64,000 nucleotides of DNA from Podarcis bocagei (lineage: Eukaryota): assembly GCA_964188305.1 (NCBI GenBank), contig OZ076893.1, one strand, 5' to 3'. The position numbers and the translations under genes are program-made. Under the pieces are notes generated by a model that had not been told where the DNA came from, searched no databases, and saw nothing but the letters and a program-made list of their open reading frames with translations. Positions 6,223-61,671 of this stretch are shown here, piece by piece. Position 1 is the first letter of the stretch, and each line of letters starts with the position of its first letter.

Positions 6223-7860
6223 GAGCCTTGCTCAGTGTGATTAGAAAAGTAAGCAAAGGCATCTTGCCTAATTTTTTCTCTCAGTGGGAGAGCAGAAGGC
6301 GTCCATTGGAATGCTTTTCCTAGCGGGTGGAATAACTAATATTCTTACATACAAATTTCCCCCTCAGTTATTCCACATTTGAAAGACTATTATGATTAGG
6401 TAGCCTGAGAACCTATTTAATTTTCCAGTAGTAGCTCTTTTTAAGTCTGGCACTCATTCCCCTCTCCCCCGCACAAAGTAACTTTTACAGTTTTTAAGAG
6501 GCATAAACTCCTGGGAATTAATTTAGTTGTGCTTTCTGTATCAGAGATCTTGTTCTGCAACCTGTAAAAATTATGCTTCATTTACTCAGAAGAAAGTCCT
6601 GCTGTGTTGAATGAAGCTTGTTCCCAGCTTGTGTGTACAGAACCCATAGCCTTATTTATGTACTGCTAGTCACTATGAGGCAATAAGCTCCGCACTGAAA
6701 AGTCACACCCTGACCACCAGAAATTCCTTCCTCCACCTCAGTTTTTTGATTTGATGACGTACATCCTTAGCCATATGGACTAGATACTTAGTTATAATGG
6801 AATATCTTATGGAGTACCAGTTGTGCAATCATAGGGCTGCCAAACGTCCGGGAATTGGGCAGGAAAATGGTGTCTGTGCAGATTTTCGGCAAATTGGCAA
6901 AATGTCCAGGGAAACCCAGCAAGGGGTGTGTGTTGATATATTTATTATTTTTTAAAAAACAACAACACACACGATCATTTAAAAATTCAAAAAAAGGCCA
7001 GAAACTTAGATTGGCTATGAACCAGTGTATAAATATTAAAAAAATTATGGACTATATCATCTAAACAGGGACACTAGTGCAATGGCTCTCCTTTTCCCAT
7101 GCAACTTCTTTGAACTCCTAAATCTGTTCTGGGGTCTCCCCCAGCACCCCAGAGCAGATTTAGAGGGCACAGTGGCATAACCGTCAACATTACCCAGACA
7201 AAAATCAGGATCTGAGAGCACGGCACTAAAATACATGTGTCTTTTGGTTCTGTACTCTCTCGCAAGCCTGCGGACCCGCACGACACCAAAATACGTGCAT
7301 CTTTGGTTGCTGCGCTCTTACCCAAGTCAGTGGCACCACTGCAAATGCCAGCACCAGCTGCAAGCGCTGGCTCATCCCTGCAATATTGCAGGCTCAAACC
7401 AGAAGCCGATATAGCTTCTGTAATTCCAGGAATGTCCCATTGAAATAGGGACTGTTGGAGTGTGTACTGGGGGAGAAGAGGGTAGCAAAGTTACACTGTG
7501 GAGCTAAATATTGTTGTGCTGGCATGACTGTTAGAGCTGAATAACACCTCAAAAAATTGAGAAACATTACAGCAGGGTTTCTGAGCTGGCACAGAATGGA
7601 TGTACAACCACACTATTTTCCTCTGCTAGGAAGAAAGCACCAGCAGTGGTGATATGTGTGGTGTGGACACCACTTTGACTCCTCTCCAAGGCAAGCATAA
7701 GCAGACCTGGAAAGTCCAGTGGAACTGCTTGGAAGATGCCATCACTGAAGATGCCTGTGTACAAGCTCGACGGTAACTATAGGAATGAGGCTACGCGACG
7801 AGATCATAAATCTCAGAGGTTGGGGACCTGAGCACATGTTGACCAAGTCCACAGAATGCA

Positions 7861-8277
7861 TTGCGTGTTGAGTCACAGTAGCCCCCCAATAATTCACACT
7901 TCACACATCAATTTTGTTTAAGGTTTTTTGGCATAATTTTGGCCACAACTTTATTCAAATACAAAAAATGTGAGTGGTTGCTTAGGCACTGGTTATGACT
8001 AACTGTCCTTGCCCTCAGGGACAGAGCTGGCCTTCCGGACACCGGCGGAAGCCAGCGTGGGAAACAAGTATTGGGTGAGAAATAAAGCCGGGAACCAGAC
8101 CATTATTTCTCACCCTCATGTTCCGGTGGGGCTTGCACGGCCCAAGTCCGACTCCGGGGACAAGGACGAAAGAATGGCAAGCCCCTGGATTTCCTTTAAC
8201 GGAATTCCCATTCACATCATTTGGAGGGGTAGGCACTTACCCCTCCAAGCACCAATTTAACCAGTGCCTAACCGCCA
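7861..8277 (-). repeat. Ngaro repeat B2 (3' terminal)
   Basis: Copy of B1. AATAAA on the minus strand at 7950-7955, with a GT-rich tract downstream. Confidence 0.93.
7950..7955 (-). terminator. Polyadenylation signal in repeat B2
   Basis: AATAAAGTTGTRGCC is conserved in all four families: 7950-7955 and 8757-8762 (minus), 19600-19605, 43094-43099 and 61579-61584. Confidence 0.7.
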
Positions 8278-8305
8278 ACCTTACAAGTTGTGACGATTTG
8301 CTACG

Positions 8306-8362
8306 TAGTAGGCAAAAATCAACTGGCACCAGCCAATCAGCCAGATGGCAAAATTCCTACTA
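8306..8362 (-). promoter_or_regulatory. ENE-like RNA element (U-rich internal loop flanked by helices) in the A2-B2 spacer
   Basis: The minus strand reads UAGUAGG-AAUUUU-[upper stem-loop]-UUUUU-G-CCUACUA. The same pattern occurs at 19165-19221 and 61183-61232. Confidence 0.6.
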
Positions 8363-8456
8363 GGCCCCCGCACCAAGGCGGACGACCCCATGACAGGCAA
8401 TAGCAAGGTCAAGCGAACAAAACAAAAAACCACCCTATAAAAGGGCGGGAGGGCGG

Positions 8457-8671
8457 GTGATCCGAGGAAAAACGGCCAAGAGGCCGTGCCAAAGTCTGGC
8501 CCCTGTATATATAGACTCTGACCCCTCCTCCGAAATGGTAACACTCAAAACACCCAGCAACCCAATTTAACCATTTAAGTGGCCAAGATTCAGCTAAATT
8601 TGCCTAGTCACAGGAGGGTGGCCTGTTCCCAACCGCAACACGTGCTCTCTGCTAGGGAGAACACGCTTTGC
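8457..8671 (-). repeat. Ngaro repeat A2 (internal copy, abutting B1)
   Basis: Copy of A1. It shares TTGC (8668-8671) with B1 at the junction. Confidence 0.93.
8506..8513 (-). promoter_or_regulatory. Candidate TATA box in repeat A2 (same motif in A1 at 15484-15491)
   Basis: TATATATA lies ~30 nt upstream of a pyrimidine-rich tract near the 3' end of A. TATTTAA sits at the equivalent position (19024-19030) in the solo unit. Confidence 0.55.
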
Positions 8672-9084
8672 GTGTTGAGTCACAGTAGCCCCCCAATAAT
8701 TCACACTTCACACATCAATTTTGTTTAAGGTTTTTTGGCATAATTTTGGCCACAACTTTATTCAAATACAAAAAATGTGAGTGGTTGCTTAGGCACTGGT
8801 TATGACTAACTGTCCTTGCCCTCAGGGACAGAGCTGGCCTTCCGGACACCGGCGGAAGCCAGCGTGGGAAACAAGTATTGGGTGAGAAATAAAGCCGGGA
8901 ACCAGACCATTATTTCTCACCCTCATGTTCCGGTGGGGCTTGCACGGCCCAAGTCCGACTCCGGGGACAAGGACGAAAGAATGGCAAGCCCCTGGATTTC
9001 CTTTAACGGAATTCCCATTCGCATCATTTGGAGGGGTAGGCACTTACCCCTCCAAGCACCAATTTAACCAGTGCCTAACCGCCA
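8668..9084 (-). repeat. Ngaro repeat B1
   Basis: Matches 7861-8277 at offset 807 with one mismatch (9021 vs 8214). AATAAA on the minus strand at 8757-8762. Confidence 0.93.
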
Positions 9085-9112
9085 TAGAGCCCTCAGCTCA
9101 CCGCCAAACCAC

Positions 9113-9706
9113 TCACAGCCCCAGCCAAGCCCTCAGCTTGGCCACCACCGCACCTAACCAAGCCTCATTCCCAGAAGCAGAAAGGTGCACACCATCAGCT
9201 CTAAAGAGAGCTGCCGCAGGATAGGAGATTTCATGGTGAAAAATCACCTCCCCACCCAGCTCCACAATCCTTTTAGAAACGGCCGCATTGATGCGCTTCC
9301 TGGCCCTTTCCGTGGCCACCGGGCAACGACTTCCCAACCAAACACGTCGTTGCAAAAGCTTAGACCAAAATAACTTGGCTGTGGGCACCATTTCCCGCAG
9401 TGTCTCCAGGTCAGCCAAAATTGCAGCACGTAAAGAGAAGCAGTCCATGGCAACCAGGTCATTCTCCCCCAGCTGTACCACAATAGCCGCTGGCGGCCCT
9501 TCCAGGAGCAACTGCCTTCGAATTCGTGGCAAAAACTCCGACCACCGCATTCCTCGTCTAGACAGCCAGGACACTCGAACATGTGAAGGAAGGCCGAGAC
9601 CTGGACCCAATCCGGACTGCCGTGCTGCGACACCAGCCCAATGGATGATGCTGTGCCCCACCATCCAGATGCGTACAGCTGACAAACCTGGGATAAAATA
9701 AACCAC
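9113..9706 (-). CDS. SGNH/GDSL-family hydrolase (esterase-like) ORF of the Ngaro element
   Basis: Block I IWMVGHS, block II RGMRW, block III VQLGEND and block V DGVHLS are all present in an intact 197-aa frame. Confidence 0.88.
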   Translation of the reverse strand: MVYFIPGLSAVRIWMVGHSIIHWAGVAARQSGLGPGLGLPSHVRVSWLSRRGMRWSEFLPRIRRQLLLEGPPAAIVVQLGENDLVAMDCFSLRAAILADLETLREMVPTAKLFWSKLLQRRVWLGSRCPVATERARKRINAAVSKRIVELGGEVIFHHEISYPAAALFRADGVHLSASGNEAWLGAVVAKLRAWLGL

Positions 9707-9729
9707 AAAAGGTATCAGACACTAACTGG

Positions 9730-10700
9730 TTAGCGAACATATCCCCTGAACGCATTCGACTTCCAGCGACCTAAATCCTGAATTCTAGCAGCTGACAAAC
9801 CCCAATGAGCTGCGGTCGTGGCAGCCCCTATCCTGAAGGAATGGGGGGCAAAATCAGAAGCTACTCCGCCACAGGCCCGAATAGCCTTACGCATCACCCC
9901 TGCGAACTGGTGCCTTGTAAGGGGTGACCCATTCTCGTGTAGAAGCAGCGGCCCATCCCCCTGGGCCCGCACCACTAGATACTTGTTAACATCCTTTACT
10001 GGGCAAGGGCCTGTCGCCCCAGTGGCAGGGAGCCGAATGAGGGCCCCCTTACCCCCTTGATCCGTTTTTGAATGCCTAATCATAATACCCACTTCCGCAG
10101 GGGATAGTCGCACATCCTGGAGTAGAAGGCCCCTGGAGCGACCATCTCCGTGGTCCTCCACCACTAATTCACCCACTCTCAACGCTCCAAAAAAGGCGAT
10201 TGAGAAGGCAGCTGAAAACAGGCGGGCCTCGTAATCAGACCAACACACCACCCGCAGCTTTTTGCGCATCTTGCTCAACAATTCAAAAGAGATGGGGCGA
10301 CGGTTAGGTGGCCGAGCAGGACAAAGTCGACCCCAACCCTCAAGGGCTTTGCGAACCACAAACTTCGCACAAGGATCTTTGTCAAAATATGTCTTACAGA
10401 AAAATGCTATAGCAGCTGCCTGCATCCTAAGAGTCTTGGCCGCACGCCCCATCTCAAATAAATGGGCCAAATATTGTAGCACCTGCGAGGAGGTGGGTGG
10501 GGCCCCAACTATTCCCCTAGCTGACTGGCGCAGAAATGCCAGAAAATCAGCCCAAGCTTTTCCGTAGGATCTCAGGGTAGAAGGGGAAACCGATGCCGCT
10601 ACTCCCTGAAAAACTAATTGCTGCCAAGGTTCCAGAGATGATCCGGGAAATATTCCGGACGAATCCGCGCCTCTGGAACCAGAAGTCTGAACCGCTCCAT
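9730..10700 (-). CDS. Tyrosine recombinase (YR); the frame is open upstream of the listed GTG start at 10482, to about 10720
   Basis: Catalytic set R (FFGALRVGEL), K (HSKTDQ), HxxR (HSFRIGAAT), W (LGRWKS) and Y (FRGYVR). The upstream in-frame segment VSPSTLRSYGKAWADFLAF resembles the N-terminal domain of DIRS/Ngaro YRs. Confidence 0.93.
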
Positions 10701-12815
10701 CTGAAAACGGGACAGAGCATCAGCAATTTCGTTAGACACCCCAGGAATAAAACGTGCGGAAAAAACTATATTACAACGTAAGCAATGCAGTACAAATGCC
10801 CGCAAAAGGGGGGACACCCTGGGTGAGCGAGATGACAGTTTGGCCAGCACAGTCACCACCGCCTGGTTATCGGTCCAGAAGCAGACACATCGGTTCCTGA
10901 ACTCCTCGACCCACAAGTGCACTGCCACTGCAATTGGAAAAAACTCAAGAAAAGTTAGGTCACGCGTAATCGCACTTCCCTGCCACCCAGCCGGCCAACG
11001 CTGAGCGCACCAACGACCTTTCCAGTAAAGACCGAACCCCAATGAACCTGCAGCATCGGAATGCACCTGGAAATCATTATGCAAGTTCAAAGTGTCTTGC
11101 CATAATGACACCCCATTGAATTCCTCCAGGAATTCGAGCCAGATGCGAAGATCAGCACGCACCCCACTAGAGAGGCGAACCCGATGATGCGGTGCCTTCA
11201 ACCCTACTGTGAGACGCGCCAGGCGTGAACAGAAGGGGCGCCCGGGAGCCACTACTCTGCAAGCGAAATTCAGATGTCCCAAAAGCGACTGGAGTTGCCT
11301 AAGCGACACTTTTCTTAAAGGAAGCAGCTCCTCAATGATCTTCCTGAGGGCGACCAACTTGTCCCCAGGCAAGCTGGAAGTTTGAGCCACTGTATCCAAG
11401 AGGATACCCAGGTAAGTAAGCTGGGTTGCAGGACCCTCCGTCTTGTCAGCGGCGAGCGGAACCCCCAATTCCTGTGTAAGGTCAGCAAAGGCCTGCAGCA
11501 ACACCGCGCAATCGCCGGTATCACTCGCCGAGGCCAATAAAAAATCATCCAAATAATGGGTGACTCCGCCCAAACCTGTTTTAAATTTTAGGGCCCACTC
11601 CAGAAAGGTACTAAATGCTTCAAAAGCGGCACATGCGACAGAACATCCCATAGGCATTGCCTTGTCAAAGTAATAACTGCCCTCAAATTTAAAACCAAGT
11701 AGCCAAAAATCCTCCGGGTGAATTGGCAAAAGGCGAAAAGCTGATTCGATATCGCATTTTGCCAATAAGGCTGCACGGCCAAACTTCCTGATCATCTTGA
11801 TCGCTTGATCAAGAGAAGCATACCTCACGGAGCAGAGCTCCGACGGAATAACGTCATTGACTGACGTGCCCGTGGGATGTGATAAATTATGAATTAAACG
11901 AAATTCACCAGGAGCCTTTTTTGGCACGATACCCAATGGGGATACATGCAAATTATGAAAGGGGGGATTATCAAAAGGGCCAGCCATACGCTGCATGGCT
12001 ACCTCTTTCGCAATCTTCTTACGAGCAACCTGAGGCAGTTCGCGAATTGACTTTTGATTAGCGGGGTTCTGTGCCACGGGAGGCATGGCTACAGGAATTC
12101 GAAAACCTACGGAAAAACCATTGTTCAGATAGACCGCAGCCTCCCTATTGGGGTAAGACTGCAGCCATAATTGCAGGGGCTGCAAGCGAACCGGGGTGTA
12201 TGCCAAGGAGGTCAATGCGTTATTTCCCTGCTGTAGCAGGGGAGGGGGTTGGTTTTTGGGTTTGCTGAGAACCCCCTCTGCCACCTCGAAAGGGCCGGCG
12301 ACCACCAAAACAAGAAGAAGCAGCATGCGAACCATTGCACCTCTCGCATACATGGGCAAATCTGCACCCTTGCCGCTGACAGGAACCTTTGTTAAAGTCC
12401 CAGCATAGGAGCCGGCGGCCAGTTCTAGAGGCTGCCGGTTTGAATTTCTGCTGTTCTGGTGCTTTCTTATCGATGAGTGGGGCCACGTGGGTGGTCCAGA
12501 CATCGAGATCCCTACGATCCCAACGGGCTGTAGGAATTTTTGCCGCTCGGCGCCTGAAATTCTCATCATATTTGATCGCAGCCTTCTCACCAGCTTTGGT
12601 GAAGGCAGAGCGAACAATGGATAAGTAAACAAACAAGTGAAGAGACCTCCGAGGATAGGCTGCCACAACAACACCAGCGAAGACTTGAAAACAATCGAGC
12701 CAATGCTCGAATGTCCTGTCTCCAATGGCGGCACCAGGGCGCTTCTTGGAAGAAGGCCCTTTCTCCTGATCCTCTGACGGCGGGGCCAATTTGAAAATGT
12801 CAACGTAACGGCCAT
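10614..12815 (-). CDS. Reverse transcriptase / RNase H (DIRS/Ngaro type); true start uncertain
   Basis: RT motifs SPLGIVPKK, FRLIHNLS, KCDIESAFRLLP, MPMGC, HYLDDFL and TYLGI. RNase H motifs HSDAAG, LEFFPI, WTDNQAVV and ADALSR. No stops or frameshifts. Confidence 0.95.
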   Translation of the reverse strand: MAVTLTFSNWPRRQRIRRKGLLPRSALVPPLETGHSSIGSIVFKSSLVLLWQPILGGLFTCLFTYPLFALPSPKLVRRLRSNMMRISGAERQKFLQPVGIVGISMSGPPTWPHSSIRKHQNSRNSNRQPLELAAGSYAGTLTKVPVSGKGADLPMYARGAMVRMLLLLVLVVAGPFEVAEGVLSKPKNQPPPLLQQGNNALTSLAYTPVRLQPLQLWLQSYPNREAAVYLNNGFSVGFRIPVAMPPVAQNPANQKSIRELPQVARKKIAKEVAMQRMAGPFDNPPFHNLHVSPLGIVPKKAPGEFRLIHNLSHPTGTSVNDVIPSELCSVRYASLDQAIKMIRKFGRAALLAKCDIESAFRLLPIHPEDFWLLGFKFEGSYYFDKAMPMGCSVACAAFEAFSTFLEWALKFKTGLGGVTHYLDDFLLASASDTGDCAVLLQAFADLTQELGVPLAADKTEGPATQLTYLGILLDTVAQTSSLPGDKLVALRKIIEELLPLRKVSLRQLQSLLGHLNFACRVVAPGRPFCSRLARLTVGLKAPHHRVRLSSGVRADLRIWLEFLEEFNGVSLWQDTLNLHNDFQVHSDAAGSLGFGLYWKGRWCAQRWPAGWQGSAITRDLTFLEFFPIAVAVHLWVEEFRNRCVCFWTDNQAVVTVLAKLSSRSPRVSPLLRAFVLHCLRCNIVFSARFIPGVSNEIADALSRFQMERFRLLVPEARIRPEYFPDHLWNLGSN

Positions 12816-13911
12816 TCAATATCCTAGACCTAAGCTTTGTAGCCAAGTGTGAACCAGGGATAATGTCCCTGGCCGAGTTGGTAGAGACCTTAGTGTCAGG
12901 TACTAGCACGCCATCCCTACACTCTTGAACAGCACCGTACTTAGCACGGTGCGTATTTGCCCTCCGTTCCCAGGCCCACCTCGGGAGCCCTGAAGCCGTC
13001 TCGCCAAAAACCCAATACAGTTCCATAGGTTTATCAGCCTCATCATCAGAGCTAGATGACGTACCCGTATATGATGAAGAAGAGTCCGCCCTTCTACGTT
13101 TGGCATGTTTTCGGGAAGATCTTCTGCGATGACGCTTTCCCCCCAAGGATCTCTTGGCCGGGACTGGTAAGCTATCTTCCATAGAAGAGGCCGAGTCAGA
13201 ATTTGGCTGAGAAGCACCCGGATCCTGCGCTACAACTGGAGCAGAATAAGAGGAAGATGTGTCGTCCCTCCTCCGTTCGGCGTGCCTCCGGGAAGACCCC
13301 TTGCTGTGACATTTTCCACCTGAAGACCTTCTGGCAGGAACTGGTAAACTGTCTTCAACAGAAGACTCAGAATCGGGATTCGGCTGAACTAGACCTGAGG
13401 CCGGTGGAGAAGAAACAACACGTGAGAGACCAGAACCGGACGCCACTTCGGCAGGGGGCTGGGCAATCCTGCCTCTACGTGCAGAAGATGACGAAAGGTT
13501 CCCTCTTCCTGAGGCCCTTCTGGACGAATAAGCTGACCTCCGTGTGCGGCCACGAGCAGCGGGTAAGTTACGGGGCCGGGTTAACTGAGGGTCACTTCCC
13601 ACAGCCCCAGTTAACAACCCTTCTCTCCCATTCTCGCTAGATAACGACGATGCCGGAGACGACGCCCCCACCGGATGAGGCATCCCTGCCGATGTGGAAG
13701 GCTGACTGGAACATTGTTGCAGAAAACCGTCCATTTGCTCCGCGAAACGAGACAAGGCAGCTGGATCACCGGCCATGCTAGCCACCAGGGACTGCACCCA
13801 CCCCATTGGCGGTCTCGAAACAGGTGAGCGCAGCGCCTGGGAAGGGCCTCTAATAGGCCGTTTTGCGGTGGAAGATGAGCCAGGGCGGGCTGTGGCTTTC
13901 TTTGGAGCCAT
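12220..13911 (-). CDS. Ngaro ORF1 (gag-like) with C-terminal Cys/His zinc-finger motif
   Basis: Open frame of 563 aa from the ATG at 13911 (MAPKK...). It has an S/R-rich N-terminal half and the C-terminal motif CWDFNKGSCQRQGCRFAHVCERCNGSH, and it lies upstream of the RT. Confidence 0.85.
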   Translation of the reverse strand: MAPKKATARPGSSSTAKRPIRGPSQALRSPVSRPPMGWVQSLVASMAGDPAALSRFAEQMDGFLQQCSSQPSTSAGMPHPVGASSPASSLSSENGREGLLTGAVGSDPQLTRPRNLPAARGRTRRSAYSSRRASGRGNLSSSSARRGRIAQPPAEVASGSGLSRVVSSPPASGLVQPNPDSESSVEDSLPVPARRSSGGKCHSKGSSRRHAERRRDDTSSSYSAPVVAQDPGASQPNSDSASSMEDSLPVPAKRSLGGKRHRRRSSRKHAKRRRADSSSSYTGTSSSSDDEADKPMELYWVFGETASGLPRWAWERRANTHRAKYGAVQECRDGVLVPDTKVSTNSARDIIPGSHLATKLRSRILNGRYVDIFKLAPPSEDQEKGPSSKKRPGAAIGDRTFEHWLDCFQVFAGVVVAAYPRRSLHLFVYLSIVRSAFTKAGEKAAIKYDENFRRRAAKIPTARWDRRDLDVWTTHVAPLIDKKAPEQQKFKPAASRTGRRLLCWDFNKGSCQRQGCRFAHVCERCNGSHAASSCFGGRRPFRGGRGGSQQTQKPTPSPATAGK

Positions 13912-15434
13912 ACCTACTATTTTGGAAACAAAGTTGACAGTCAAAAAGGTCCCACAAATCAAAGACAGCCAAGCAAAGCCAACGAGCGTCAGGGGGAACT
14001 GGCTATGGCCAGTCAGTTACCCCCCAACAAGAGCACCACTGTTGACTTTATCTGCAACTATATAAAAAAAAAAAAAAACCTTGTACCTAATTGGAAACTA
14101 ACTAATACTGTATGACTTAATAAATTCAAGTAGCGAGTAAAATATCTATTTACGCGATTTCTTTGAAATATGCACTCAGTGCACCCCCTCAGGCCGGCCA
14201 GGAGGGAGCACTAGCCGGTGGCAATGCAATTAGAGGAGGTGCAGAAACCGGCTAAGCCACCACAGGTAGGCTGGCACTCCGTGGTAGGCTCACTTGCGTA
14301 TGACAGGTGCTAAAATAATAATTACTTTCAACTCCCAAACAGCCAGGTTAAACTAACAGGCTAAATAAAAGCAAAAGCAAAATCAAAATTAAATTAAATT
14401 AAATTAAATAGGTGCAATGCCCAGGCCAACCAGCAGATGGCTCTAGCTTGCCTGGCTGAGTCAACAAGAGGGAGATGCAATTACTTGCTGAGCCACTGGG
14501 GGAGCTCAAGCGCCTGCAAGCTGCAATAGCTCCCAGCGGCCACAAGAGGGCCAGCCGACCTCAGCAAGCAGCACCAGCGCTCTCTCCGACCTGTGCGACG
14601 TTCAACACGGCGAGCCCTGGGCGATACAGCCAAAATCGCCCACAAACAAAAACAGGCCGCGCCGAGGCCTCGGAGGCCCGCGCGGGCTCCGCGCCGACCG
14701 CTGCAACGGCGGGCAGCGACGCCAGAAAAAACGCCCCAGAGCCCAGGCGAAAGCGGGCAGCCACAGCGCCTCCTAATTTATTTATTTATTTTTCTTCCCT
14801 ATTCTCCGACGATAGCGCCGGAAAGCGGGAGCGCTGCAGCGGCCGCTGCCAACCCGGGGCCGGTGGCGCTTCACCCCCACACACCGGAACAACCAGGTAA
14901 GCCCTTTTAAACGTCCAGGTCCCTGGCTCGCTCGTGGGGGGGCGGGTCACTTCGGCGGTCGCCGCCGCCGCCACGCCGCGTTCCGAGGCCCGGGCTTCGA
15001 CCGGGAGTGCGCCGATGGGGGGGTGTAAGGGGAAAGGGACCCAGCTGCGCTCCGTGATTCGGGCAATGGGCCGTGGGTTCCCCGAGCCTAGTAAACGGCC
15101 CCAATCCTTCCCACCCCCAAGAAGAACCAGGTTTTTTTTTTTAAAAAAAAAAAAACCGCGTTGCCGGGGAGGCAAGGCCTCCCCCGGGCTGGGGGGGGGT
15201 CCCCACCCTCAGCCTCTGCACAAACGGGGGTAGCTCGGGAAATACAATAAAATTCGGAAAAACCCCCAGGGCCCAACACAAGGAAACAAGAGCGAAGAAA
15301 GTGGGGACGGAAAGAATACAAAGAAGGGGGAGGGTGAAGGAGAGAGAGGAGGCCAAAGCGGCTAGAAGAATATGAATTAATTAGCAAATAATTAGCAAAT
15401 ACAACCGGCTCAAGCGCTGGCTGCTCCTTGATCC

Positions 15435-15649
15435 GTGATCCGAGGAAAAATGGCCAAGAGGCCGTGCCAAAGTCTGGCCCCTGTATATATAGACTCTGAC
15501 CCCTCCTCCGAAATGGTAACACTCAAAACACCCAGCAACCCAATTTAACCATTTAAGTGGCCAAGATTCAGCTAAATTTGCCTAGTCACAGGAGGGTGGC
15601 CTGTTCCCAACCGCAACACGTGCTCTCTGCTAGGGAGAACACGCTTTGC
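15435..15649 (-). repeat. Ngaro repeat A1 (5' terminal, promoter-bearing)
   Basis: Matches 8457-8671 at offset 6978 with one mismatch. TATATATA at 15484-15491. Confidence 0.93.
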
Positions 15650-16734
15650 AGGCGATAAACGGCATGAGGATCCACGGGGGAAAGGAACCTCTTGCGAGCA
15701 GTCTTAGCAAATAACAAAACAAAAGCAACACCATTGCTATGGACTACACAGTGAAGATTGGTTTAATAGTCATTCTGGCTCCACTGAGAACCCCAAGAAG
15801 CCTAACAGAGAATGATCAACACTCTCATGAAACTAGAATTGCCAGAATTCTTTGAGGGAGGAAGCCATTCCAGTTAAGTTGATGTCGATAGCTTGTCATG
15901 TGACACATCCACTGGAAACTCATGCCCCATAGCATCTTGGGATTTTGCTATTTAAAAAATATCATATTATCCTGCTTATGTTTCAGAGCCTGGTTGTAAT
16001 ATTACAGACAAGATAAACCCATCCCAGTCTTAGGAACTTAACCATCATTGGGCTATGTTTTGCACAAAAAATGTAGAAATGATATTAACAGTTAACAGAA
16101 TCTGTCAACGAGCAGCAGCAAGTAGAACTGAAAGGGAATAAAAAGGATATTTTCATGAATGAAGATTAAATGTTGGTGATGTCACCATTTTGGTTTTATC
16201 TTGATTTTTCTTTAAAAACAACAAGAAGAACAGGATTTACTGATTACCAATATTTGCTTTGAAAATTAGAAGCTGAGCAGAAGTATATGTGAAGCAGAAA
16301 TTCTTGCTGACGTGCTAAGATTTTTATCAGTCAAGGTATTAGGTCCTTATTCTTTTAAATTGGGCCTTACAGGTCTGTAATAGTGGGGAAAACTTTTGAC
16401 GGTTCAGCTTGCTTTTTAGATAGGACGGTGCTTTGATCACACATTTGACAATGAAGGTGGGGTTGGGGAGGTAAGGCTGAGTTGCTGACATAAGCAAGCT
16501 GGTTTTCCTCATGTCTCTAAGTGAAAGCTTATGATCATATTCTTAGATGCTTTTTGTCTGTCTCTATCTTTCCTTTTCATCTAATGGTGCCTTTTAAAAA
16601 AAGTTGGCATATGACTGAAATCATAAAAATGAATTTCTTTATTTTATTAGGAAACAAGGCTGCTGTTTCAGATGACTTTTTTCCCCTGGTTATGACAAAA
16701 TTGTCAAAAGGGATTTAACTTCCTTTCTTTCCAG

Positions 16735-17018
16735 ATCACATGGCCGATGTAAAAACACCAGTGCCCAGCAAAGGAATGCCTCTGACTGTTATTAAAGACA
16801 GATCTGATCCTTGCGAAAACCCTGTGCTATTTTTGAGATAAGTAAACGGCACGGAAATAAACAATGTGACATTTTACTTCTACACTCTGCCCAAGACGCA
16901 AACCACATACTGCTTTGGAAATATGAAACATGACAAATCACTGTTTTGTTTTGTTTTCAAACTTCAAACCAGAGAAATTGTACACTTCCTTGTGAATTAT
17001 ACCACTGCGTTTTCATAG
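16735..17018 (+). other. Candidate host exon (284 nt), gene unidentified
   Basis: Acceptor TTCCTTTCTTTCCAG and donor TAG|GTAAGT in non-repetitive sequence. Confidence 0.35.
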
Positions 17019-17148
17019 GTAAGTTGCAGTTCTTTCTCTGCTCAGAACTTTGCCAGGCTCTGTGCAAGAATGTGTCACCGAAAACAAAACAATAATGTAC
17101 ATTCTTCTGTTACATTAAAAAAAAAATGTTACTACTTAAAATAAGGCA

Positions 17149-17495
17149 GGGACGCGGGTGGCGCTGTGGTCTAAACCACTGAGCCTCTTGGGCTTGCCGA
17201 TCAGAAGGTCAGCGGTTCAAATCCCCAAGACGGGGTGAGCTCCCATTGTTCGGTCCCAGCTCCTGCCCACCTAGCAGTTCGAAAGCACATCAAAGTGCAA
17301 GTAGATAAATAGGTACCACTCTGGTGGGAAGGTAAACGGCGTTTCCGTGCGCTGCTCTGGTTCGCCAAAAGCGGCTTAGTCATGCTGGCCACATGTATGT
17401 ATGCCGGCTCCCTCGGCCAGTAAAGCGAGATGAGTGCCGCAACCCCAGAGTCGTCCGTGACTGGACCTAACGGTCAGGAGTCCCTTTACCTTTAC
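17149..17495 (+). mobile_element. Sauria-type SINE
   Basis: GGGACGCGGGTGGCGCTGTGG head, tRNA-like B box GGTTCAAATCC, (ACCTTT)n tail, TSD TACTTAAAATAA. Confidence 0.9.
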
Positions 17496-18865
17496 TTAAA
17501 ATAAATATTGGCTCTTAGGAAATAAATCTTTAATATTGACTCATCAAATGAGCAAGCTAAAGTATCATTTCCTAAATCTGTGATCCACAAAACACTTAGG
17601 GCAGATCTGCAATGACTGCAGCATCATATGTTAACTTGCTCACACCAATGAGCCATCATAGAGCCAACATCACATATCTTCACATGTCACATCAGATGCC
17701 ATATTTTGCAATGGAGTTCATTCACATATTGAGGGTGCAAACACATAGCCATGTTCATCTGTGCTTCCTACAAGCATTGGTAGTTTAGTTATTTCATTGC
17801 TCTGTGCAGATGCATTCCACTTTTACCTGAAAAAGTTGGTTATTCAGGGACATGCAATGCAGCAAAATAGTTTAGCTGGCCATGTAAGAGCATGCAACAT
17901 GCTTGAAAGTGTGCTGGATTCAGGTAGCTTCCCAATATCATGGAGACTGCTTCATTGATAACCATCTTCAGGATGTTTCGGCACTGAAGTTGCTCCACAT
18001 GATTGTTTGGTTTGCACACCTGAACAGTGCATTAGGAAAGGCTATTGCCTCACCGTGTTTCAGTGTGCTGATTATTATAATATGTCAAAAGTAACTAAAT
18101 GCCTTTATCATACTTTACTTATTTTTTTTTTTTTTTTTTGGGGGGGGGGACTTAATCTTGAGTACATCTAAGAATGGGTCTATGTCTTTGCCTCCACTAT
18201 GAGATGCCCAGAACCTTAAATTGTTTTTGACAATTTCCTCTTATAAGGCTCAAATCTGAATTCTCACATTAAATAAACTGTCAAAACCTAAGCCTGTTTA
18301 CATGTAAGTAACTCCCACAACAGTCAATGAGACTCGTGTCCTATGAGAGTGTTCATAGAACTGCAGTCAAGCTCTTTTCAGGGACTATTGAAAGCCAATA
18401 ATATACCAAAGTATGTTATTGTAGGTTGAATAAAAACTTTGACAGATGGACCACTATAAATTGTTCAAGGTAGAATCTGCTGAAAGCATATTTTAAAATG
18501 AGGAATGGGCTATAGGCATCTATAGGAGGAGAGGAATAGCGCCCCCCCCCCCGGTGAACCGTAATCCTCAGATTACCCAGTTTCCCTTTTTAAAAAAAGT
18601 AGATTATTTCCCTTAGGATGCCCCTATTTTTACAGGAGAAATGTTGGAGAGTTTGGAGTTATGCAACCCTTGAGCAAAGAATAAGTAACTATACAACCTT
18701 AAGAAGACATCTGAAGGCAGCCTTGTATAGAGAAGTGTTTTTTTTTTAATGTTTTATTGTGTTTTTATATATGTTGGAAGCCATCCAGAGTGGCTGGGGC
18801 AACCCAGTCAGATGGGCAGGGTATAAATATTAAATTATTGTTATTATTATTTTGGAATAGGACAT

Positions 18866-19701
18866 AGCGTGTTCTCACTAAAGGAGAGCACGTGTTGCGG
18901 ATGGGGCCAGACAAAGCACCCTGCAGTGACTAGGCAGGTTGGAATTAAGGAGCCTAGTGTTGGTTGGTGTTTGCGTTGCTGGGGCAAATTTGATGTTGCA
19001 AATTTAGGGGTGGGATCAGAGGATATTTAAGCAGGGTCCACAGCAGGCTACTTTCTCTTTCGCTGTGGACATCGGATCACCCGCCCGCCCGCCCTCCCTT
19101 GTTTGGGCTTGTGCCTTGACCTTGCTATGCCTGTCATGGGGTTGTCCGCATTGGTGCGGGGGCCTGGTAGGAATTTTTCCAATTGGCTGATTAGTGTGTG
19201 CCTTTTGGGTTTTGCCTACTGCTTAGCAAATCGTCACAACTTGTAAGGTTGGCGGTTAGGCATTGGTTTAAATTGGTTGGTGGAGGGGTATGGATTGGCT
19301 GTGCCTGCCCCTCCAATGCTGTTGCTGCACGGGAATTCCGTTAAAGGAATTCTGGGGCTTACCATCCCCTCGTCCAAACCCCTGGAATCGGGTGCGGGCC
19401 ACGTAAGCCCCTAGGAGCATGCAGGGAGAAGCTGAGGGTCTGTGTCACAGCTCCTTTTATCCCTGAACTTGTTCCTCCACACTGGCTTTCGCTGGAATCC
19501 GGGAGCCAGTGCTGTCCCCAAGGCGGGGGGCGGGGCGGGGCAGGGGAACGACAGATAGTCATAACCAATGCCTAAGCAACCACTCACAATTTGTATGCTA
19601 ATAAAGTTGTGGCCAAAATTATGCCAAAAACCTTAAACAAAAATTATGTGTGATGTGTGAGTTATTGGGGTAAGGGTGTTTTGGGGGACCTCAGCACGCA
19701 A
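18866..19701 (+). mobile_element. Solo A-spacer-B unit of a related Ngaro subfamily
   Basis: Begins AGCGTGTTCTC and ends CAGCACGCAA, like the termini of the full element. It is colinear with the reverse complement of 7861-8667, 836 bp long, with no element ORFs. Confidence 0.9.
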
Positions 19702-19883
19702 CCCTATTTTCACTGGAGAAATGTTGGTGGATATGTGATTGCACTTGTCCCTTCCAGCAGCTGTCAGCCAAAGTGCCTCTTAAGGATGCATGAGGAATGA
19801 TGGTAGGAGCTTTCGGAACTGCAGTTCTTGAGTGAGCATGTCACATAAAGTGGCAGGCACACTCCTCTCTGTCATCAAGCTAT

Positions 19884-20100
19884 GAATCATAGAATCATAG
19901 AATCATAGAGTTGGAAGAGACCACAAGGGCCATCGAGTCCAACCCCTTGCCAAGCAGGAAACACCATCAGAGCACTCCTGACATATGGTTGTCAAGCCTC
20001 TGCTTAAAGACCTCCAAAGAAGGAGACTCCACCACACTCCTTGGCAGCAAATTCCACTGTCGAACAGCTCTTACTGTCAGGAAGTTCTTCCTAATGTTTA
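19884..20100 (-). mobile_element. CR1 LINE 3' end
   Basis: (ATTCTATG)n tail; encodes NIRKNFLTVRAVRQWNLLPRSVVESPSLEVFKQRLD. Confidence 0.9.
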
Positions 20101-39132: not shown

Positions 39133-39320
39133 NNNNNNNNNNNNNNNNNNNNNNNNNNNNNNNNNNNNNNNNNNNNNNNNNNNNNNNNNNNNNNNNNNNN
39201 NNNNNNNNNNNNNNNNNNNNNNNNNNNNNNNNNNNNNNNNNNNNNNNNNNNNNNNNNNNNNNNNNNNNNNNNNNNNNNNNNNNNNNNNNNNNNNNNNNNN
39301 NNNNNNNNNNNNNNNNNNNN
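39133..39320. other. Assembly gap
   Basis: Run of N. Confidence 1.
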
Positions 39321-42303: not shown

Positions 42304-42442
42304 CTGATCTTATGCCATCAAAATAATTCAATTGTGCCTTCAATCCACTTAATAATAAATTGTCTTCAGCTGCCACAATCCCTTTAAGTACAGTTCCTTC
42401 AACTTAAGTACAGTTGCCCCCTTTCATTTCCAAGTTGCAGCC

Positions 42443-43193
42443 TTAGGCATTGGACGCGGGTGGTACTGTGGTCTAAACCACAGAGCCTAGGGCTTGCTGA
42501 TCAGAAGGTCGGCGGTTCGAATCCCCACAACGGGGTGAGCTCCCGTTGCTTGGTTCCTGCTCCTGCCAACCTAGCCGTTTGAAAGCACGTCAGGTACAAG
42601 TAGATAAATAGGTACCGCTCCAGCGGGAAGGTAAACGGTGTTTCCGTGCGCTGCTCTGGTTTGCCAGAAGCGGGTTAGTCATGCTGGCCACATGACCCGG
42701 AAGCTGTCTGTGGACAAACGCCGGCTCCCTCGGCCTATAGAGCGAGATGAGCGCCGCAACACCAGAGTCATCCGTGACTGGACCTAATGGTCAGGGGTAC
42801 CTTTACCTTTAAGCCTTGTTTATGGGAGGGGAGGTTGTTGCCTCCACCTGCCCCTCCTCGTTAAGAGTATCCCATTAAAGGGATCCGGGGGGTGGTTCCT
42901 GTCCAAAGCCTGGGTGTGGGCTAGGGCCATGTCACAACCCCATTGGGGACCCTGGGGGTGCTCTTAATTAATGTATATCATAGGGGGGGCTATCGGTGGT
43001 TGACACTTCAGAGACTTCCAGCAGATGGGCAGGAGTCAGGATATAGTCTGTCTTCACCCAAATGCCTAAGTCCAACCGCTCACATCTGTAACCAATAAAG
43101 TTGTAGCCTAATTGATCCCATTAACCCAACATATTCGTGTTTGTGTGTTTATTTCTGGGGGGGAACTGCTGGGCCTGGGGCTTCACCATGCAA
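42443..43193 (+). mobile_element. B-repeat-only Ngaro fragment (fourth family), interrupted by a Sauria SINE
   Basis: TTAGGCATTGG, then the SINE, then GAGGGG...CCCCTC, ATCCCATTAAAGGGAT, AATGCCTAAG and AATAAAGTTGTAGCC, ending ATGCAA. Confidence 0.72.
42452..42810 (+). mobile_element. Sauria-type SINE nested in the Ngaro B fragment
   Basis: GGACGCGGGTGG head, GGTTCGAATCC B box, ACCTTTACCTTT tail. Confidence 0.9.
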
Positions 43194-60868: not shown

Positions 60869-61671
60869 TGGTGCAATAAAGACTCTCCTCGCTGCAAGAG
60901 AGGGGAGTGGTTGTGACCGGGAGCCGGACTCCGCTTCAAGCAGGGGGCGTTAGCCCCCTGCCTCCCCCTCACCTGGCTGGCGCCCACGCCCAGGCACCCA
61001 ACCAGGTGCCTTCAAGGGGGCGTGTACAGAAGCCTAAATTGCTGTGGCGCCAGCCTCCCGGTCTCACTTTTCGTCGTCCCGTCGCGAGTCACTCACCCTC
61101 CACTCCCTTAGAGCAGGGTTTCAGTTTTCTTTTGGCCTTGCTATGGACCTTAGGTTGGTCGCCCTGGTTGTCCGGGGGGCCTGGTAGGAATTTTTCCATT
61201 TGGCATTAGGCTTTTTGGTTTTTTCGCCTACCTCGTAGCAATCGTCACAACTTTCATGGTATTGGTGGGTAGGTTAGGCATTGGAATAATGTGTTGTGGT
61301 GTCGAAGGGCTAGGTGTGGCCATCGCCTACGCCTTCAATTTTTGGGTATTCCGTTAAAGGAATCTGGCGGTCGTGTATTCTGTCCGATGCCTGCGTGGCG
61401 GGAGGCCATGGCAAGACCCTTGGTGACTTCAGAGGAGAGCTTATAGTTGGATTAGCATCAACAGGCTCCACCTACTGGTGAATAAACCCCCTTGTTTTAG
61501 ACTCACCCCTCTCCGAGTGGGTGGAGTCAACTGATGTAATCCAATGCCTAAGCCAATACCTTTTCACTTGCTGTAATCAATAAAGTTGTGGCCTTTTCTT
61601 GCCCATTAACCTTATATCACGTGTCCTTGTGTTTCATTCCCCTATGCGGGGATCGGGTCCTCGAACCACAA
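60869..61671 (+). mobile_element. Solo A-spacer-B unit of a more divergent Ngaro family
   Basis: Shares the ordered motifs CCTTGCTAT, GGGGCCTGGTAGGAATTTTTCCA, GCAATCGTCACAACTT, TTAGGCATTGG, TTCCGTTAAAGGAAT, CCAATGCCTAAG and AATAAAGTTGTGGCC. Length is ~803 bp; the ends are inferred. Confidence 0.8.

Follow-up and report, generated by a model that had tools for sequence, protein, structure and literature searches.

Predicted RNA folds around two identical poly(A) signals in an Ngaro-type retrotransposon of Podarcis bocagei

A 64,000-nt stretch of the Podarcis bocagei genome (hereafter the window) carries what its repeats and reading frames identify as an intact Ngaro-type retrotransposon, in which the AAUAAA signals of repeats B1 and B2 are identical, lie 807 nt apart and are predicted to stand in different RNA folds. 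At B1 the end of the SGNH hydrolase gene is predicted to pair with the segment leading to the signal (the lock); at B2 the spacer is predicted to pair with the end of the signal itself (helix (ii)). The reading of these models in which the lock damps B1, cleavage takes place at B2 and the tail is carried to an ENE-like loop by helix (ii) is evenly poised between acceptance and rejection. Its fuller form, a two-context switch in which the SGNH coding end locks B1 and an ENE triple helix in the spacer takes up the B2 tail, would be tentative. The element class is known, as are the principles of signal occlusion and of the ENE; their arrangement here was not found described in the literature search. 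Transcription and copying of split-direct-repeat retrotransposons are almost unstudied, and the lizard element has to ignore a first poly(A) signal and end its transcript at an identical second one, 807 nt on. The named helices, the cut site and the natural long-lock and short-lock subfamilies make the question testable by a simple reporter.

Organization and classification of the element

The element is 7.8 kb long (Table 1), with GCAA at either end and again at the B1/A2 junction, and contains four long open frames: gag-like, reverse transcriptase/RNase H, tyrosine recombinase and SGNH hydrolase. Three features by which Ngaro elements are recognized were found, namely, the split direct repeats A1-B1-A2-B2; frames of reverse transcriptase/RNase H and tyrosine recombinase, the PF00589 match of the latter being just under the cut-off; and a frame of SGNH hydrolase, with a PF13472 match under the cut-off, without methyltransferase, for which no match was obtained among the four frames scanned. 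No Pfam match was obtained for the gag-like frame. The nearest named proteins belong to Podarcis lizards, with identity up to 93%. In young elements A1 equals A2 and B1 equals B2 right up to the outer ends.

In its A1-ORFs-B1A2B2 split direct repeats and its RT/RH, YR and SGNH hydrolase genes, the element resembles the Ngaro superfamily, for example, Xenopus DIRS-53_XT (PMC9210276); B is 152 bp long in DIRS-53_XT, whereas in the lizard element it is about 420 bp long.

A pyrimidine tract with YAG is located ahead of the SGNH frame (~9715-9688, minus strand, with CAG at ~9690) and was present in all six subfamilies printed. According to this conserved predicted splice acceptor, SGNH hydrolase is probably made from a spliced mRNA, and the same evidence suggests that this mRNA could well end at B1.

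Table 1. Positions of the element, its predicted RNA features and related copies in the window
Feature	Position	Strand	Basis or remark
Full-length Ngaro-type tyrosine-recombinase retrotransposon, A1-ORFs-B1-A2-spacer-B2	7858..15649	-	Repeats, frames
Repeat A1	15435..15649	-	TATA box 15491-15484; differs from A2 at one position
gag-like open frame	12220..14016	-	Position and C-terminal Cys/His cluster
Reverse transcriptase/RNase H frame	10614..12815	-	PF00078, E 4.6e-12, over cut-off
Tyrosine recombinase frame	9730..10719	-	PF00589, E 9e-6, 26 bits vs cut-off 27.1 (just under)
SGNH hydrolase frame	9113..9721	-	PF13472, E 1.6e-5, 25.9 bits, under cut-off
Predicted B1 lock, 5' strand UGUGAGUGGUU	9107..9117	-	Spans SGNH stop codon
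Repeat B1	8665..9084	-	
Helix (i), 5' strand in B1	9065..9078	-	Partner 8802-8789
Predicted B1 lock, 3' strand AACCACUCACA	8776..8786	-	Just before U run, UGUA 8770-8767 and AAUAAA 8762-8757
B1/A2 junction, palindromic	8660..8676	-	Putative recombination site
Repeat A2	8457..8671	-	TATA box 8513-8506
Spacer, 179 nt	8278..8456	-	Single-copy within element
Predicted helix (iii), 5' strand	8400..8406	-	Partner 8304-8298; closes arm of ENE-like loop
ENE-like stem-loop	8308..8360	-	Lower stem GUAGG/CCUAC and upper stem CCA/UGG (damaged here) around a U-rich internal loop
Predicted helix (ii), 5' strand GUCACAACUU	8285..8294	-	
Repeat B2	7858..8277	-	
Helix (i), 5' strand in B2	8258..8271	-	
Hairpin with GUUAAA loop within B domain	8191..8204	-	Conserved, stem covarying
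Helix (i), 3' strand in B2	7982..7995	-	
UGUA and AAUAAA of B2	7950..7963	-	UGUA 7963-7960, AAUAAA 7955-7950
Predicted helix (ii), 3' strand AAGUUGUGGC	7942..7951	-	
Inferred cleavage/poly(A) site	7924..7931	-	~19-26 nt past hexamer, GU-rich tract after; analogy with retrocopy L442, another subfamily
Solo A-spacer-B unit, sister subfamily (19-kb copy)	18866..19701	+	
Solo A-spacer-B unit, long-lock subfamily (61-kb copy)	60878..61671	+	
B remnant without spacer (42-kb family)	42442..43193	+	Split by dispersed short repeat (~42452-42812)

Abundance and comparison set

In the genome, a spacer motif has 3,397 exact matches and an SGNH-end motif has 964, as against none for the reversed controls; the Ngaro family of the window element is large. 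The starting set of 195 spacer-B and 65 SGNH-B1 stretches, in which some loci were hand-picked for diversity, was reduced to 54 and 37 representatives; 47 of the 54 spacer-B representatives were aligned (seven old copies, one family, were dropped), as were all 37 of B1. Two other searches were set aside: with PF13472 in the same genome, all 30 loci examined were LINE ORF1 esterases, and the 119 stretches from a metagenome pattern scan were taken as chance.

Two shortened forms are common. Among 49 SGNH-B loci, 16 run on to A2-spacer-B2, and most of the other 33 stop exactly at the B end; a B copy is located upstream in only 2 of 70 spacer loci. Recombination between repeats, or resolution of circles by the recombinase of the element, could have produced such forms. 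In Cafeteria Ngaros, solo A-B units have been described (PMC8547959), and SIRE corresponds to the A2-B2 part of VIPER (PMC6681497).

Poly(A) signal and cleavage site

The AAUAAA hexamer is intact in 45 of the 47 spacer-B representatives, UGUA, the site of CFIm, is located 2-7 nt upstream in 42, and a GU-rich tract is present downstream. A search for tailed copies gave two matches, L441 and L442, and a second pattern again gave only L442; L441 was rejected as a retrocopy, its A run being an expansion inside B. L442 (G000:C13:13749860-13750460) is a tailed Ngaro B-end retrocopy located inside another repeat. It consists of a 5'-truncated B end of 140 nt from a divergent subfamily, too short to be assigned to B1 or B2, with 12 A starting 24 nt past the hexamer and a target duplication of 15 bp; the empty site was found in two window repeats. 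On the evidence of this one retrocopy, the AAUAAA is a real, working poly(A) signal with cleavage ~24 nt downstream, and LINE-type machinery can copy Ngaro RNA. With this cut site, the 3' strand of helix (ii) remains in the mature RNA.

Helix (i) and the B domain

The sequence-only reading had proposed that 8271-8258 pairs with 7995-7982 over 14 perfect base pairs, with counterparts in other families at 19256-19268/19563-19575, 61274-61285/61540-61551 and 42442-42451/43061-43070; each of these was confirmed as an exact complement. No long-range perfect complement of 14 bp arose in 200 dinucleotide shuffles of spacer and B2, where the longest was 13. Changes on both sides were found at 3 of 11 pairs among the 47 spacer-B representatives and at 2 of 11 among the 37 of B1, one subfamily altering up to three pairs together, and RNAalifold returned helix (i) from the spacer-B alignment. 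Helix (i) is very probably a conserved RNA helix, and the proposal that it folds out the B domain gains support from this covariation. The helix lies 2-8 nt inside the left edge of B in all 69 elements with both copies.

Within the domain, the GUUAAA-loop hairpin, present at 8204-8191 and 9011-8998 (minus strand), is kept in nearly all subfamilies and is a candidate for a protein or tertiary contact. Pairing of the RNA 5' end with GGCCAA downstream of the signal, seen in the window fold, was rejected as a general feature, not being evident in other families.

Predicted pairing of the SGNH gene end with B1

In the window fold of B1, the SGNH stop region pairs with the segment ahead of the U run, the 5' strand of the lock being provided by the final SGNH codons. 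This window-based prediction was followed by the finding of a longer lock in B1 copies of the 61-kb and 42-kb families, in which pairing of the D-W-L-Q-x-stop codons extends across UGUA and into the hexamer as far as its AAU. The long form, a helix of 25-28 bp as compared with 11-13 bp in the window clade, was present in most subfamilies among 50 further SGNH-end loci, retrieved with a search pattern that did not contain the lock. In the tree of 26 coding stretches, which has long branches and no outgroup, the short-lock rows cluster (2 changes vs 7.7 shuffled).

The distal 12 pairs of the lock are 85% paired in the 37-row alignment, with double changes at 4, and in one subfamily UGUA is changed to UGAA together with its lock partner. 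The whole B1 structure has 39 double-change cells vs 15.0 +/- 3.0 in shuffled alignments (0 of 500 as high), a control that leaves kinship in, so that such counts overstate independent events. RNAalifold on the mixed B1 alignment did not return the lock, giving a weak helix of GGCGGCGA and UUGUGGCC instead. Both strands are under other constraints, from the protein and from the poly(A) motifs. In all 26 long-lock rows tested, the real codons pair better than the mean of random synonymous recodings, the margin being wide in few rows, and a cross-family duplex test gave a modest result: the own partner was best in 5 of 37 rows and among the top five in 15, with a median rank of 8.

The cost of opening the UGUA-to-hexamer segment as it emerges was calculated with the B interior omitted, a full-length check being made for three elements, for 18 elements that include near-duplicates. 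In long-lock elements it is predicted at 12.1 kcal/mol for B1 vs 3.0 for B2, with B1 higher in 11 of 11. For the hexamer alone, 30 nt later, the values in the long-lock clade are 3.65 and 3.55, with B1 higher in 6 of 11. In the window clade, the opening of the same UGUA-to-hexamer segment costs 1.8 kcal/mol for B1 vs 2.1 for B2, with B1 higher in 2 of 7; the short lock thus predicts no asymmetry between the two signals, and B1 is probably simply leaky there. The window clade contains many near-identical young copies. The earlier proposal that the two signals are structurally non-equivalent is borne out to the extent that B1 and B2 are predicted in different folds; the stronger asymmetry comes from the B1-specific helix of the SGNH end, of which that proposal had made no mention.

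It is possible, if somewhat unlikely, that these folds are structural and do not select poly(A) sites, the B domain serving packaging, dimerization or reverse-transcriptase binding and strand transfer, with B1 merely leaky. The constant position of helix (i) at the left edge of B would fit a template-switch boundary, the inner hairpins of B covary, and the short-lock clade thrives without predicted occlusion; for this element class, moreover, the primer is unknown (PMC7192593). Against this stands the extent of the long lock, whose far end falls precisely within AAUAAA and which, in most subfamilies, includes UGUA, and a structural role and a poly(A) switch can both hold.

Predicted pairing of the spacer with B2

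Helix (ii) was claimed for all three spacer-containing copies of the window, and in each of them GUCACAACUU (8294-8285, 19233-19242 and 61244-61253) was found to pair with AAGUUGUGGC through nine Watson-Crick pairs and one G-U. Its overlap with the end of AAUAAA likewise holds, the last two A being covered, and RNAalifold on aligned spacer and B, the check suggested with the claim, recovered 8 bp of the helix. Among the 47 spacer-B representatives, 95.5% of cells are paired; the strands are nearly invariant, and the sole variable end is the one overlapping the hexamer (unpaired in 4 of 47). A search with a distant SGNH protein, covering 30 loci, gave no subfamily with changed helix (ii) strands.

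In single-sequence folds of the whole RNA, the probability of the helix (ii) core is 0.52 in the window element, 0.00 in the 19-kb copy and 0.75 in the 61-kb copy, while four genomic relatives have 0.95, 0.43, 0.02 and 0.98; the range for two copies of the 19-kb family is 0.00-0.02. Such low values would be expected if helix (ii) were absent and its strands conserved separately, through local GUCA/UG(A/G)C pairing, a post-signal UGG..CCA hairpin, or motifs bound as DNA or by protein. This reading, which is unlikely, also draws on the lack of a double change at any of the 10 pairs and on a GTTG(C/T)G-like motif in A near the junction. In addition, the GUCA end of helix (ii) can pair locally with upstream UG(A/G)C equally well, and the only variable pair of this alternative keeps A-U, G-U or G-C in 46 of 47 representatives. 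The local alternative leaves a 6-bp core of helix (ii) in place, though, and the blocks conserved on the two sides are co-extensive and complementary amid varying neighbours. In trimmed folds the probability of helix (ii) is 0.55-1.0 in 16 of 18, and an equally good partner arose by chance in only 11 of 2000 shuffles of the upstream sequence. On invariance and energy, helix (ii) probably forms.

The claim that helix (ii) can form only in the B2 context is correct for GUCACAACUU itself; B1 has other upstream partners. The earlier reading that helix (ii) alone distinguishes the signals, B1 being unstructured upstream, is quite improbable: it agrees with the main predicted hexamer difference of the window clade (2.8 kcal/mol for B2 vs 1.6 for B1), but under it the more hidden signal would be that of B2, where cleavage has to occur, which would weaken the needed signal, and B1 carries a conserved helix of its own.

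Spacer arm and ENE-like loop

A U-rich internal loop between two flanking helices with adjacent G-C pairs, the structural mark of an ENE, was found in the spacer of all 47 representatives. All 47 have U runs of 3 or more on both sides of the loop; in 35 the runs reach 4 or more, and in 11 they reach 5 or more. The stems are 95-97% paired, RNAalifold recovers both, and double changes are present at 2 of the 6 pairs of the lower stem. In the window copy, the upper stem has two changes relative to its closest sibling, L002, and the lower stem has a fold probability of 0.07 vs 0.85-1.0 in six other copies. A search of Rfam with window positions 7500-20000 gave six matches, all far below the gathering score, none of them in the spacer. 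On paper the spacer loop resembles an ENE and is a candidate member of this class.

The sequence-only reading had the tail brought back ~350 nt to the U-rich loop; counted from the inferred cut site, the distance is ~390 nt. With helix (ii) and the spacer helices formed, about 16 nt and some 12 bp would separate the tail from the loop.

Transcripts and proposed mechanism

In the proposed mechanism, helix (i) would close each B repeat into an RNA domain, after which come UGUA, AAUAAA, a cut at about +24 and the GU-rich tract, and the sequence just upstream of the domain, which differs between the copies, would govern the presentation of the signal. At B1, the segment from helix (i) to the hexamer would be paired with the last SGNH codons and the stop. 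In most subfamilies this lock would hide UGUA and the AAU of AAUAAA on emergence, many transcripts would read through, and these would copy the B1-A2 junction used to rebuild the element ends. At B2, the spacer could not form the lock, UGUA-AAUA would be open, and the RNA would be cut and tailed; helix (ii) would then close the B2 domain beside the spacer arm, and the tail would reach the U-rich ENE-like loop and be protected.

Since the RNA starts past the TATA box of A1 and ends before the end of B2, the missing ends would have to be copied from the internal B1-A2 junction, and some transcripts, at least, would consequently have to run past the B1 signal. Such read-through agrees with the internal-template model of DIRS-1 (PMC7192593). 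Given the predicted splice acceptor before SGNH and an mRNA that may end at B1, the B1 signal is likely damped and not silent.

Four raw-read runs (2026) gave 74, 62, 69 and 119 reads on L004:1-1700, 11 of the 324 being at least 99% alike. These sparse, mixed reads have depth on spacer and B and near zero on SGNH, with an element-sense lean in two bulk runs; there are no start or end pile-ups on this stretch, and none of the 22 loose ends listed carries an A tail.

Comparison with known systems

The element recalls the polyA hairpin of HIV-1, where an identical AAUAAA is present in two repeats and pairing hides the signal of the read-through site (PMC2645353). Occlusion of this type, with the read-through site the more paired over UGUA and hexamer, is predicted in 11 of 11 long-lock elements and 2 of 7 of the window clade. 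HIV-1 has the same local hairpin at both ends, together with 3' enhancers; no such shared local hairpin was found at B1 and B2, where the partners differ and lie outside the repeat. Unlike in HIV-1, the partner in the lizard element is ~350 nt away and belongs to coding sequence for B1 but to the spacer for B2; the two signals both lie close to the 3' end.

A large folded domain joining distant parts of a 3' end is also known in the Rex response element of HTLV-1; there the fold bridges hexamer and cut site (PMC3694450), whereas in the lizard element these adjoin and the fold brings upstream partners.

With ENEs of KSHV PAN, plant and fungal transposable elements and Evade, the spacer arm has in common a U-rich internal loop, G-C-rich stems and a position upstream of a retroelement tail (PMC7583470 and PMC12501189), and a second small pyrimidine loop above the U-rich loop recalls double-domain ENEs. 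Unlike known ENEs, the lizard loop has U runs of 3-6, often interrupted by G or C. Transposable-element ENEs reviewed in PMC7583470 and PMC12501189 come from plants, fungi, slime mould and stickleback; lizards and YR elements are not represented.

The literature search, which covered its sources in part, gave nothing on ENEs, poly(A) site choice, RNA ends or RNA structures of Ngaro repeats; the papers and supplements of Tycowski 2016 and of Goodwin and Poulter could hold an Ngaro entry. The Tycowski 2016 tables reportedly contain about 200 ENEs of transposable elements. If the reading is true, an ENE is present in a tyrosine-recombinase retrotransposon of a tetrapod, and ENE-type tail protection reaches a new class of mobile elements in a land vertebrate. 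The solo A-spacer-B units, which number in the thousands and each carry a TATA box, an ENE and a poly(A) site, would then encode a stable structured RNA of 550 nt.

Other observations

At the B/A junction (8676-8630, minus strand, and ten further loci), a longer hairpin was observed, in which CGCAA or CACAA at the B end is matched by TTGCG or TTGTG ~30 nt inside A; the two co-vary between subfamilies. A G-rich stretch located 15-25 nt upstream of the B end, at 8694-8687 and 7887-7880 (minus strand) in the window, is present in all subfamilies seen and occupies the place of a polypurine-tract primer. Window positions 39133-39320, outside the feature studied, are 188 N. On contig C19 (G000), young, near-identical copies of Ngaro and LINE elements accumulate, as on a non-recombining sex chromosome.
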